Shown: positions 3,518-3,952 of the stretch, in pieces | How the letters are laid out: every line of letters starts with the position of its first letter | Position numbering within the stretch: position 1 is the stretch's first letter | Virus record (IMG/VR): IMGVR_UViG_2531839468_000011 | DNA length: 7,102 nt | Strand: one strand, 5' to 3' | DNA from: a virus | Lineage: Duplodnaviria; Heunggongvirae; Uroviricota; Caudoviricetes | Notes under the pieces: model-generated | Seen by the model: only the letters and a program-made list of their open reading frames with translations | The model's database searches: none | What the model was told of the DNA's origin: nothing | Position numbers and translations under genes: made by a program

Positions 3518-3522
3518 TATTA

Positions 3523-3570
3523 TTTACTCATGTTCTAACTGATTTAATATTTATATCGAACACTGATAAT
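3523..3570 (+). promoter_or_regulatory. Putative sigma70-type promoter region for the lipoprotein gene
   Basis: Candidate -35 TTTACT (3523-3528) with -10 TAATAT (3545-3550) at 16-nt spacing; an alternative -10 is GATAAT (3565-3570). Hexamers are weak matches in an AT-rich context, so this is speculative. Confidence 0.2.
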
Positions 3571-3589
3571 TATTCTGTTGGTTAGCTAT

Positions 3590-3928
3590 ATGAACAAAAC
3601 GATTTTATTCTGCACGATTATTGCCTTAACAGGATGTAAATCTTTGGATTACGTAAAATCCGGCAAGCCTGTAATGGAAGGTAATTCATTAAAAAATATT
3701 GATGAATTGTCAGGCTGCATATCCAGACAATGGGCTGGTAATGGAACACCTATAACATCCATTCCTATTGAGAATGGGGTAAGCCTTTTAGTTCCACAGG
3801 CTATGGGTGGGTATGATGTTGTGCTTGATATCAAAAAAGCAGGAAATGGCAGTAGTTTTACTCTTTATGAACGCGTACCAGCATTAACGCCAAAAATTTT
3901 TGCTGATAGTGTTAATGCATGTAAATAA
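3590..3928 (+). CDS. Small predicted outer-membrane lipoprotein of unknown function (112 aa from ATG 3590; 116 aa if TTG 3578 is used)
   Basis: N-terminus MNKTILFCTIIALTG|C has a short basic n-region, a hydrophobic core and lipobox L-T-G-C with Cys at position 16. The +2 residue is Lys (not Asp), which predicts Lol sorting to the outer membrane. The mature part has two further Cys (SGCIS and the C-terminal NACK). Codon usage is AT-rich and unlike the neighbours. No obvious Shine-Dalgarno. I recognise no homologue from memory. Confidence 0.75.
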   Translation: MNKTILFCTIIALTGCKSLDYVKSGKPVMEGNSLKNIDELSGCISRQWAGNGTPITSIPIENGVSLLVPQAMGGYDVVLDIKKAGNGSSFTLYERVPALTPKIFADSVNACK

Positions 3929-3952
3929 TAGTTAATCCTGCCGTAACTCATG

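Follow-up and report, generated by a model that had tools for sequence, protein, structure and literature searches.

The question raised by this locus is what a short AT-rich block is doing between two genes of a phage tail operon. The block lies in a stretch of 7,102 nucleotides from a tailed phage (Caudoviricetes; IMG/VR virus record IMGVR_UViG_2531839468_000011), hereafter the window, which represents the distal half of a lambda-type tail operon, with each tail gene carrying the expected Pfam domains. It separates gene I from gene J, which encodes the tail-tip, host-specificity protein, and it contains one gene for a small lipoprotein. A sequence-only reading had taken this gene for an acquired add-on (moron) and its product for a candidate mask of the receptor recognised by J. 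Our analysis indicates that the block is very probably a horizontally mobile moron whose single gene encodes a small exported lipoprotein from PHROG phrog_914, a family that is restricted to phages and so far uncharacterised. The fuller account that we favour, in which this mobile moron lipoprotein acts at the envelope in the interest of the phage, is put forward tentatively, its prospects lying just short of evenly balanced. The earlier interpretation is right in kind, as regards an uncharacterised moron lipoprotein, and not in its logic of adjacency to J.

The foreign character of the block was apparent from its composition and from empty sites. The guanine-plus-cytosine (GC) content falls to 0.30-0.41 over positions 3500-3950 (200-nt windows) against 0.55-0.63 on each side, and the open reading frame (ORF) itself has a GC content of 0.37 against 0.56 for the flanks. 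The block measures about 430 bp. A base-level comparison with lambda and mEp460, in which the I-J spacer is 60 bp, places its left edge at the I stop codon (3517), where homology with these phages ends, and its right edge at about 3950, just 5' of a hairpin at about 3952. In the phage collection, 107 lambda-like phages match the I and J flanks only (about 283 of the 701 nt of the query), showing that the block is absent from them. The original description of an AT-rich block that disrupts a GC-rich tail cluster exactly at the I stop codon was thus borne out by composition and by the lambda and mEp460 edges alike. According to the definition of Juhala and Hendrix, a moron is extra DNA of deviant base composition lying between otherwise adjacent genes (summarised in PMC3594210), and the block has both of these properties; the definition further asks for a terminator of the moron's own and a promoter active in the repressed prophage. 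Elsewhere in the lambda tail operon neighbouring genes abut or overlap, and the 60-bp I-J spacer may therefore have been left behind by a moron since lost, or may be a site preferred for insertion. The homologous spacer stretches are 3952-3994 in the window, 2446-2505 in the lambda locus (L017) and 418-477 in the mEp460 locus (L209).

The ORF within the block runs from an ATG to a TAA and encodes 112 residues. An alternative TTG start at 3578 would give 116 residues; the ATG is the start used by RefSeq PGAP at the identical locus of Escherichia coli O55:H7 CB9615. The encoded N-terminus, MNKTILFCTIIALTG followed by CKS, has an n-region with a single Lys, then a hydrophobic core, then the lipobox L-T-G-C, and conforms to the pattern [LVI][ASTVI][GAS]C preceded by a positive n-region and a hydrophobic core. 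Cys16 (3635-3637) is the candidate lipid site and Lys17 occupies the +2 position. When 27 diverse members of the family were aligned, only three residues were invariant, namely the lipobox Cys, Cys43 and Cys111, and none of the 27 had Asp at +2. The lipoprotein signal peptide with Lys at +2 that had been read from the window is upheld by this alignment, and so, as a prediction from the +2 rule (Lys17, not Asp), is the outer-membrane destination of the protein.

That the ORF is a real gene under purifying selection follows from its full-length homologues and from its low ratios of non-synonymous to synonymous substitution (dN/dS). Six of the changes between the two E. coli alleles are synonymous and one is non-synonymous (dN/dS 0.05), and more distant pairs (60-80% protein identity) gave values of 0.11-0.26. 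Seven full-length relatives have the long invariant stretches GCKSLD, AMGGYDVVLD and LYER in common. An AlphaFold2 model of the protein (predicted local distance difference test score, pLDDT, 84, with the core above 90; predicted template-modelling score, pTM, 0.76) has the order strand, helix, four strands, helix, with the signal segment below a pLDDT of 50, as expected of a cleaved signal peptide. Cys43 is placed in a long helix and Cys111 in the C-terminal helix. Since an invariant pair of Cys residues in an exported protein points to disulfide formation in the periplasm, the two are probably joined as Cys43-Cys111. The modelled fold is a generic alpha+beta domain (TBP-like or helix-grip, as in DUF302 and KA1), too widespread to indicate function. 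The protein would be exported by Sec and lipidated at Cys16 by Lgt, LspA and Lnt, and the mature lipoprotein, of about 96 residues, would be a compact alpha+beta domain, probably clamped by a disulfide acquired in the periplasm. Two minus-strand ORFs within the block (3618-3749 and 3649-3834) were also considered and have no support.

The only library match of the lipoprotein was to phrog_914, annotated as 'unknown function' (expectation value, E, 5.7e-33, residues 1-112 against positions 1-118 of a 118-position profile), and relatives from Enterobacter, a metagenome, Fraca, OS31 and others match the same profile. No Pfam family was matched by the window lipoprotein at E <= 0.1, none in NCBIfam except for a VirB7 match limited to the signal peptide, and no PDB sequence. 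A profile search of 1.84 billion representative proteins returned 116 relatives, nearly all of 105-125 residues and with a lipobox. One further candidate from that search, P0030 (1047 residues, five matched stretches), was rejected as an unrelated repetitive protein with a low-complexity match. A tblastn search of the E. coli lipoprotein against 50,697 phage records gave no match, nor did the P0016 scan of viral contigs; a scan of species-representative genomes gave one locus, in Kluyvera. The best viral structural match was an uncharacterised protein of Pseudomonas phage phiAH14a (template-modelling, TM, scores 0.70/0.83), and this protein was confirmed as a family member by hhalign (probability 98%). 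Source annotations read 'hypothetical protein' (RefSeq) or 'putative lipoprotein', and literature searches by accession, PHROG identifier and keyword returned nothing on the phrog_914 family. With PADLOC likewise silent (see below), the suspicion that the protein is uncharacterised proved justified.

The distribution of the family showed how the gene moves. In E. coli, 337 of 5426 complete genomes carry the block, virtually always flanked by I and J. The prophages concerned occupy a number of chromosomal sites, among them those of O55:H7 CB9615, O104:H4 C227-11 and avian pathogenic E. coli (APEC) O1. Other relatives lie at other junctions of the tail operon: T-H (chaperone T and tape-measure H) in HK97-like Enterobacter prophages, M-L in one metagenomic phage, and K-I in Kluyvera, in several metagenomic phages and in the cultured phages Fraca, LMessi-type and Serratia OS31. 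Two relatives were found directly after lysis genes, near an integrase, the phiAH14a relative is in the early region, and one is in an integrative element beside AAA_15/AAA_21 ATPases. Relatives with 50-67% identity occupy the T-H, M-L or K-I junction, more distant ones are found in accessory regions, and in a census of 208 loci the copies at tail junctions were all on the operon strand. The sequence-only reading had proposed that related prophages be inspected for a gene at the I-J junction. In the E. coli lineage the gene, where present, lies at that junction, and other lineages use T-H, M-L or K-I. It had also named, as a finding that would count against it, a block that proved a conserved part of the lineage's I-J region devoid of phenotype; this is borne out in part, in that the gene recurs in tail operons.

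Across these lineages, lipoprotein similarity is uncoupled from tail-protein similarity, as befits a mobile moron. Relatives from phages with I, K and L proteins at only 30-40% identity still share 51-67% identity with the E. coli lipoprotein. Fraca, for its part, has a K protein 87-92% identical to that of phages with which its lipoprotein shares only 21-26% identity. Each homologue examined at another tail junction is followed by its own, unrelated GC hairpin and T-run, and since lambda-operon genes there abut or overlap, the hairpin at those junctions came with the lipoprotein gene. Low GC, presence or absence at I-J and relatives at other junctions together sustain the view of the gene as a horizontally acquired add-on.

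Several of these loci had features of their own. The integrative element (L210 3479-7444) encodes a distant member, P0045, with a long N-terminal extension and an ATPase neighbour of a type frequent in defence systems, and has no tail genes within 7 kb of P0045. In phiAH14a (KU708004; L089 6962-7948, L091 22701-29627) the family gene is intact and was annotated as two ORFs, p34 and p33. Beside it in the early-left operon is p32, a second gene I that is 79% identical to the tail copy (p84), and in the tail module the place between K and I is taken by another lipoprotein, p83 (phrog_890). The arrangement in phiAH14a prompted the idea of a functional pair of lipoprotein and I protein; the T-H, M-L and post-lysis locations show that the two need not go together. 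In Fraca (LR597645; L088 ~6605-6952, 12537-12770) the ORF 5' of the family gene, annotated as an 89-residue 'hypothetical protein', can be lengthened at its start to MRKFLSILACSLIIVGC; the extended ORF is a second, unrelated lipoprotein between K and I, and with the cor gene after J there are three lipobox genes in the tail region. Other cargo at the K-I-J junctions comprised DUF6414, DUF4760, an 8xMP-family protein and an insert of about 4 kb in L078 (L011 6910-7963; L214 1335-1844; L005 9217-9894; L078 6063-9971), and these junctions have the look of a hot spot for added genes. At 2876-2978 of the window K and I share about 100 nt, read in different frames, as they do in lambda (14773-14875); the overlap is missing in phages that carry the lipoprotein gene between them.

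As to what the lipoprotein does, all 20-odd independent contexts examined are mobile elements, and the hosts are Enterobacterales and Pseudomonas, including Antarctic Pseudomonas, mine-biofilm Serratia, and commensal and animal E. coli. This confinement to mobile elements, mostly siphophages with a TipJ tip, from gut E. coli to Antarctic Pseudomonas, favours a phage-centred role over one in virulence. By analogy with known systems and by elimination, the leading candidate is an envelope role for the benefit of the phage, exclusion in the broad sense, which is possible rather than probable. The lipoprotein would then exclude superinfecting phages and/or spare the loss of progeny on already infected cells and debris, possibly through contact with a conserved component of the envelope, bound from the periplasm as by Llp, Rtp45 and Cor; that the component is the cognate receptor of the neighbouring J protein is unlikely. 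There is precedent in small periplasmic outer-membrane lipoproteins with a disulfide that exclude siphophages, Llp acting on FhuA and Rtp45 on LptD (PMC12685063).

The same distribution bears on the alternative that the protein serves the fitness or virulence of the host, by serum resistance of the Bor/Iss kind, adhesion or tolerance of envelope stress, and leaves phages unaffected. Cargo of this sort sits near this position in lambda-type prophages, Lom being encoded directly after J in the same prophage, the gene is present in the pathogenic lineages O55:H7 CB9615, O104:H4 C227-11 and APEC O1, and the structure is matched best by Flpp3 of Francisella, a lipoprotein that has been described as determining virulence. 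However, the resemblance to Flpp3 is weak (TM scores of 0.52-0.55 at 6-9% identity) and the fold generic, neither Lambda_Bor nor any other Pfam family was matched, and the gene is found only on mobile elements, among them phages of environmental Pseudomonas and Serratia as well as prophages of commensal and animal E. coli. A role confined to the host thus appears unlikely.

The proposal that the lipoprotein binds and inactivates the receptor of the adjacent J protein, as Cor does in FhuA-dependent lambdoid phages and Llp in T5, was examined through the variation of J. The gene is directly 5' of J in E. coli, and known exclusion lipoproteins are often encoded beside the receptor-binding gene and act from the periplasmic face (PMC12685063). 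There is in addition a weak N-terminal likeness to Cor, spanning the signal peptide and a short 'C...(K/Q)xP(V/I)xxG' stretch: hhalign of the Fraca Cor against the family aligned 31 N-terminal columns only (probability 83%), and two relatives matched the Cor profile, phrog_1119, at E ~6e-3 over residues 1-43 only. This likeness stops before the folded domain, and adjacency to J, on which the argument for masking had been built, holds in the E. coli lineage only. J is complete in 39 E. coli-type loci, and its C-terminal 250 residues group into four clusters. Identity among the clusters, and between them and lambda, is 57-68%, with the end of one being unrelated. The main lipoprotein alleles, two in number and different only at I58L, are spread over all J-end clusters with no co-variation, so that a single allele accompanies at least four J C-terminal types. 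More generally, conservation of the lipoprotein within the E. coli clade is 97% or higher, against wide variation in the tape-measure protein H, the I protein and the J end, and relatives 50-67% identical to the E. coli protein are found in phages of other genera with tail-tip proteins only 30-40% identical. Fraca has a family member between K and I and a true cor after J (phrog_1119, E 6.8e-34), and the presence of both genes indicates that the family member and Cor are not redundant. Together with the want of any sequence or fold match to Cor, Llp, Rtp45 or Bor, these findings leave the mask of J's own receptor without the basis originally given for it, and we regard it as quite unlikely. 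The two commonest J ends match phages of the VT1-Sakai/PPompW type and the 2H10/Turner type, for which no receptor data were found.

Co-variation with other tail proteins was also explored as a clue to the target. Among 12 lineages, lipoprotein similarity correlated with that of the C-terminal 250 residues of the tape-measure protein (Mantel r 0.51, p ~0.001), and for I, K, L and M no such correlation was seen. In a set of 55 dereplicated lineages the values became 0.75 for I, 0.69 for K and 0.34 for the tape-measure C-terminus, clade structure dominating, and within the Fraca-type clade they were 0.80 for I, 0.66 for the J N-terminus, 0.59 for K, 0.24 for L, 0.13 for M and about 0 for H. The tape-measure signal was thus lost with wider sampling and what remained decays with distance along the operon, which indicates physical linkage and not a functional signal, and co-variation was set aside as a guide to the target. 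One specific possibility nevertheless deserves mention. In lambda, gpI is the tail-tip plug, with two hydrophobic helices proposed to enter the outer membrane when J binds LamB, and the tape-measure protein is proposed to exit after this helix insertion (PMC11101478). The lipoprotein might be a post-adsorption block on lambda-type tail tips, acting from the periplasmic face on the gpI plug helices and/or the tape-measure C-terminus. Such a block would give receptor-independent exclusion of TipJ-type siphophages, and would account for the restriction of the gene to phages with an H-M-L-K-I-J operon, its frequent adjacency to gene I and its indifference to the J end; as a definite mechanism it is nonetheless improbable.

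The lipoprotein gene is on the strand of the late operon and must therefore be transcribed in lytic growth, when it would be read together with the tail genes. The hairpin and T-run that follow it would halt transcription that is not antiterminated (no Q-type antitermination) before the next tail gene is reached. The hairpins found 3' of the homologues suggest a second, non-antiterminated mode of transcription from the prophage, for example from a weak promoter belonging to the gene. The best sigma-70-like match found by eye is TTTACT (3523-3528) and TAATAT (3545-3550) with a 16-nt spacer, agreeing at 8 of 12 positions. An Rfam scan of the window gave no match. In the Enterobacter copy at T-H (L002 ~7965-7995), a potential leader hairpin, CCTCC-TTACTTCT-GGAGG, would pair the Shine-Dalgarno sequence of the lipoprotein gene and could be a translational control element; it was not seen in the E. 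coli copy.

Several observations weigh against a mobile lipoprotein gene that acts at the envelope for the phage. A consensus scan found no + strand promoter of at least 9/12 in the window or in four homologous loci, and the Shine-Dalgarno sequence upstream of the E. coli gene is weak. The hairpin in the window (RNA fold -22.6 kcal/mol, z -2.6; just 5' of the J Shine-Dalgarno sequence) has a homologue in the empty I-J spacer of lambda and mEp460, with both arms, the T-run and the Shine-Dalgarno sequence, and so cannot be credited to the insert at this junction. PADLOC-DB v2 gave no match at E <= 1 for the window protein and four relatives. Finally, 3 of 64 E. coli-type copies (~5%) are frameshifted or prematurely stopped; in two the frame shifts after residue ~73, and the third stops at 37 residues (L075, L076, L077 and related loci).

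Two further explanations draw on these points. The protein could be a late-cycle accessory, expressed only with the tail operon and acting in lysis or release, for instance by modifying the envelope, and would then be silent in the prophage. Its late-operon orientation in every tail-junction context, the missing consensus promoter in all five contexts and the two relatives placed right after lysis genes would fit such a role. The hairpin and T-run after the gene at each tail junction examined are hard to square with transcripts that are exclusively antiterminated, most lambda-like phages do without the gene, and an exported lipoprotein is excluded from tail assembly in the cytoplasm, leaving a purely late function with slender prospects. 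Alternatively the gene could be a selfish or decaying passenger with no current function, to which the weak Shine-Dalgarno sequence and the damaged copies lend some colour, as does a copy kept in a decayed prophage. The latter, in E. coli 06-00048 (L013 1-9696), has the IS21-family insertion sequence ISEc10 in its tape-measure gene and a truncated J, with the lipoprotein gene intact. Yet the dN/dS values of 0.05-0.26, the motifs and three Cys residues conserved across genera, the confidently modelled fold and the repeated independent capture at different junctions all argue for function, and a mere passenger is very improbable.

The features of the window are collected in Table 1. Gene I is labelled 'tail assembly protein' in RefSeq copies. 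The J portion contains the Pfam domains FNIII-A_GpJ, Phage-tail_3, Ig_J and Phage_Tail_Tip and the start of Ig_GpJ_C, and its residues 1-900 are 99% identical to the J of CB9615.

Table 1. Features of the 7,102-nucleotide window, with positions counted from its first nucleotide
Feature	Position	Strand	Basis or remark
H (tape-measure gene)	3' end only, at start of window		Pfam domains as expected
M	1203-1532		Pfam domain as expected
L	1532-2230		Pfam domain as expected
K	ends 2978		JAB and NlpC/P60 domains
I, tail-tip gene, upstream neighbour of the insert	2876-3517	+	Pfam Lambda_tail_I, E 2.7e-23
Inserted AT-rich block (moron)	3518-3950	+	GC dip; absence from lambda-like phages; lambda/mEp460 alignment
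AT-rich leader, 72 nt	3518-3589	+	Between I stop and lipoprotein ATG
Lipoprotein gene, 112 residues	3590-3928	+	ORF; phrog_914 match; homologues; dN/dS; AlphaFold2 model
Signal peptide and lipobox, MNKTILFCTIIALTG followed by C	3590-3637	+	Read from sequence
Cys43 codon, in helix 37-50	3716-3718	+	Invariant alignment column; helix from AlphaFold2 model
Cys111 codon, in C-terminal helix 103-111	3920-3922	+	Invariant alignment column; helix from AlphaFold2 model
GC-rich hairpin GAGCCGCC-TTTT-GGGCGGCT, then T-rich run	3952-3982	+	Terminator-like site; RNA fold
J, tail-tip/host-specificity gene	3995-7102	+	First 1036 codons; window stops short of receptor-binding end

The gene merits attention on several grounds. 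It is present in the lambda-like prophages of about 6% of complete E. coli genomes, with O55:H7, O104:H4 and APEC lineages among the carriers, and it has so far been unnamed and was overlooked by older annotations. Its movement among four junctions of one operon is a clean example of moron mobility, and flags the K-I-J junctions as a place to seek further envelope-acting phage genes. If the exclusion role is true, the family would join Cor, Llp and Rtp45 as the fourth structural type among exclusion lipoproteins of the outer membrane, and would affect which temperate and therapeutic siphophages infect the strains that carry it.

Among known systems, Cor (phi80, N15, HK022, mEp167 and T1; phrog_1119), which inactivates FhuA, is comparable as a small lipobox moron in the lambdoid tail-gene region with Cys in its mature part. 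The likeness in sequence is weak and limited to the first ~30-40 residues, that is, the signal peptide and a short stretch past the lipid Cys, and the Cor profile did not match the window protein at E <= 1. Cor differs in its length (77 against 112 residues), in its PHROG and in its folded part, and it is linked to FhuA-type phages, a link with no counterpart for the window lipoprotein. Bor/Iss (lambda bor, serum resistance) is likewise a prophage outer-membrane lipoprotein of about 100 residues and a case of lysogenic conversion; bor adjoins the lysis genes on the opposite strand. The window protein, however, does not match Pfam Lambda_Bor, and the hosts and habitats of its family argue against a role specific to serum. 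Flpp3 (DUF3568) of Francisella and the N-terminal domain of BamC are only 6-10% identical to it, and Pfam DUF3568 was not matched.

Llp (T5, FhuA) and Rtp45 (Rtp, LptDE) resemble the window lipoprotein in being small single domains with a disulfide, a probable one in the window protein, a predicted place in the inner leaflet of the outer membrane being common to all. These two proteins bind the receptor from the periplasmic side and alter its surface loops (PMC12685063), and they serve as the model for a possible mode of action of the window protein. A comparison with their solved structures found no sequence or fold similarity to the window protein. HK97 gp15 offers a parallel of position, being an exclusion moron inside the tail operon at the T-H junction (PMC3594210), which is the junction occupied by the Enterobacter copies of the present family. 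Itself the prototype of morons, gp15 is however a YebO-like protein of the inner membrane and no lipoprotein; it prevents DNA entry and is unrelated in sequence to the present family. The Ltp lipoprotein of Streptococcus phages targets the tape measure. A post-adsorption block at the tail tip would make the window lipoprotein a Gram-negative counterpart of Ltp, and a counterpart of gp15 as well.

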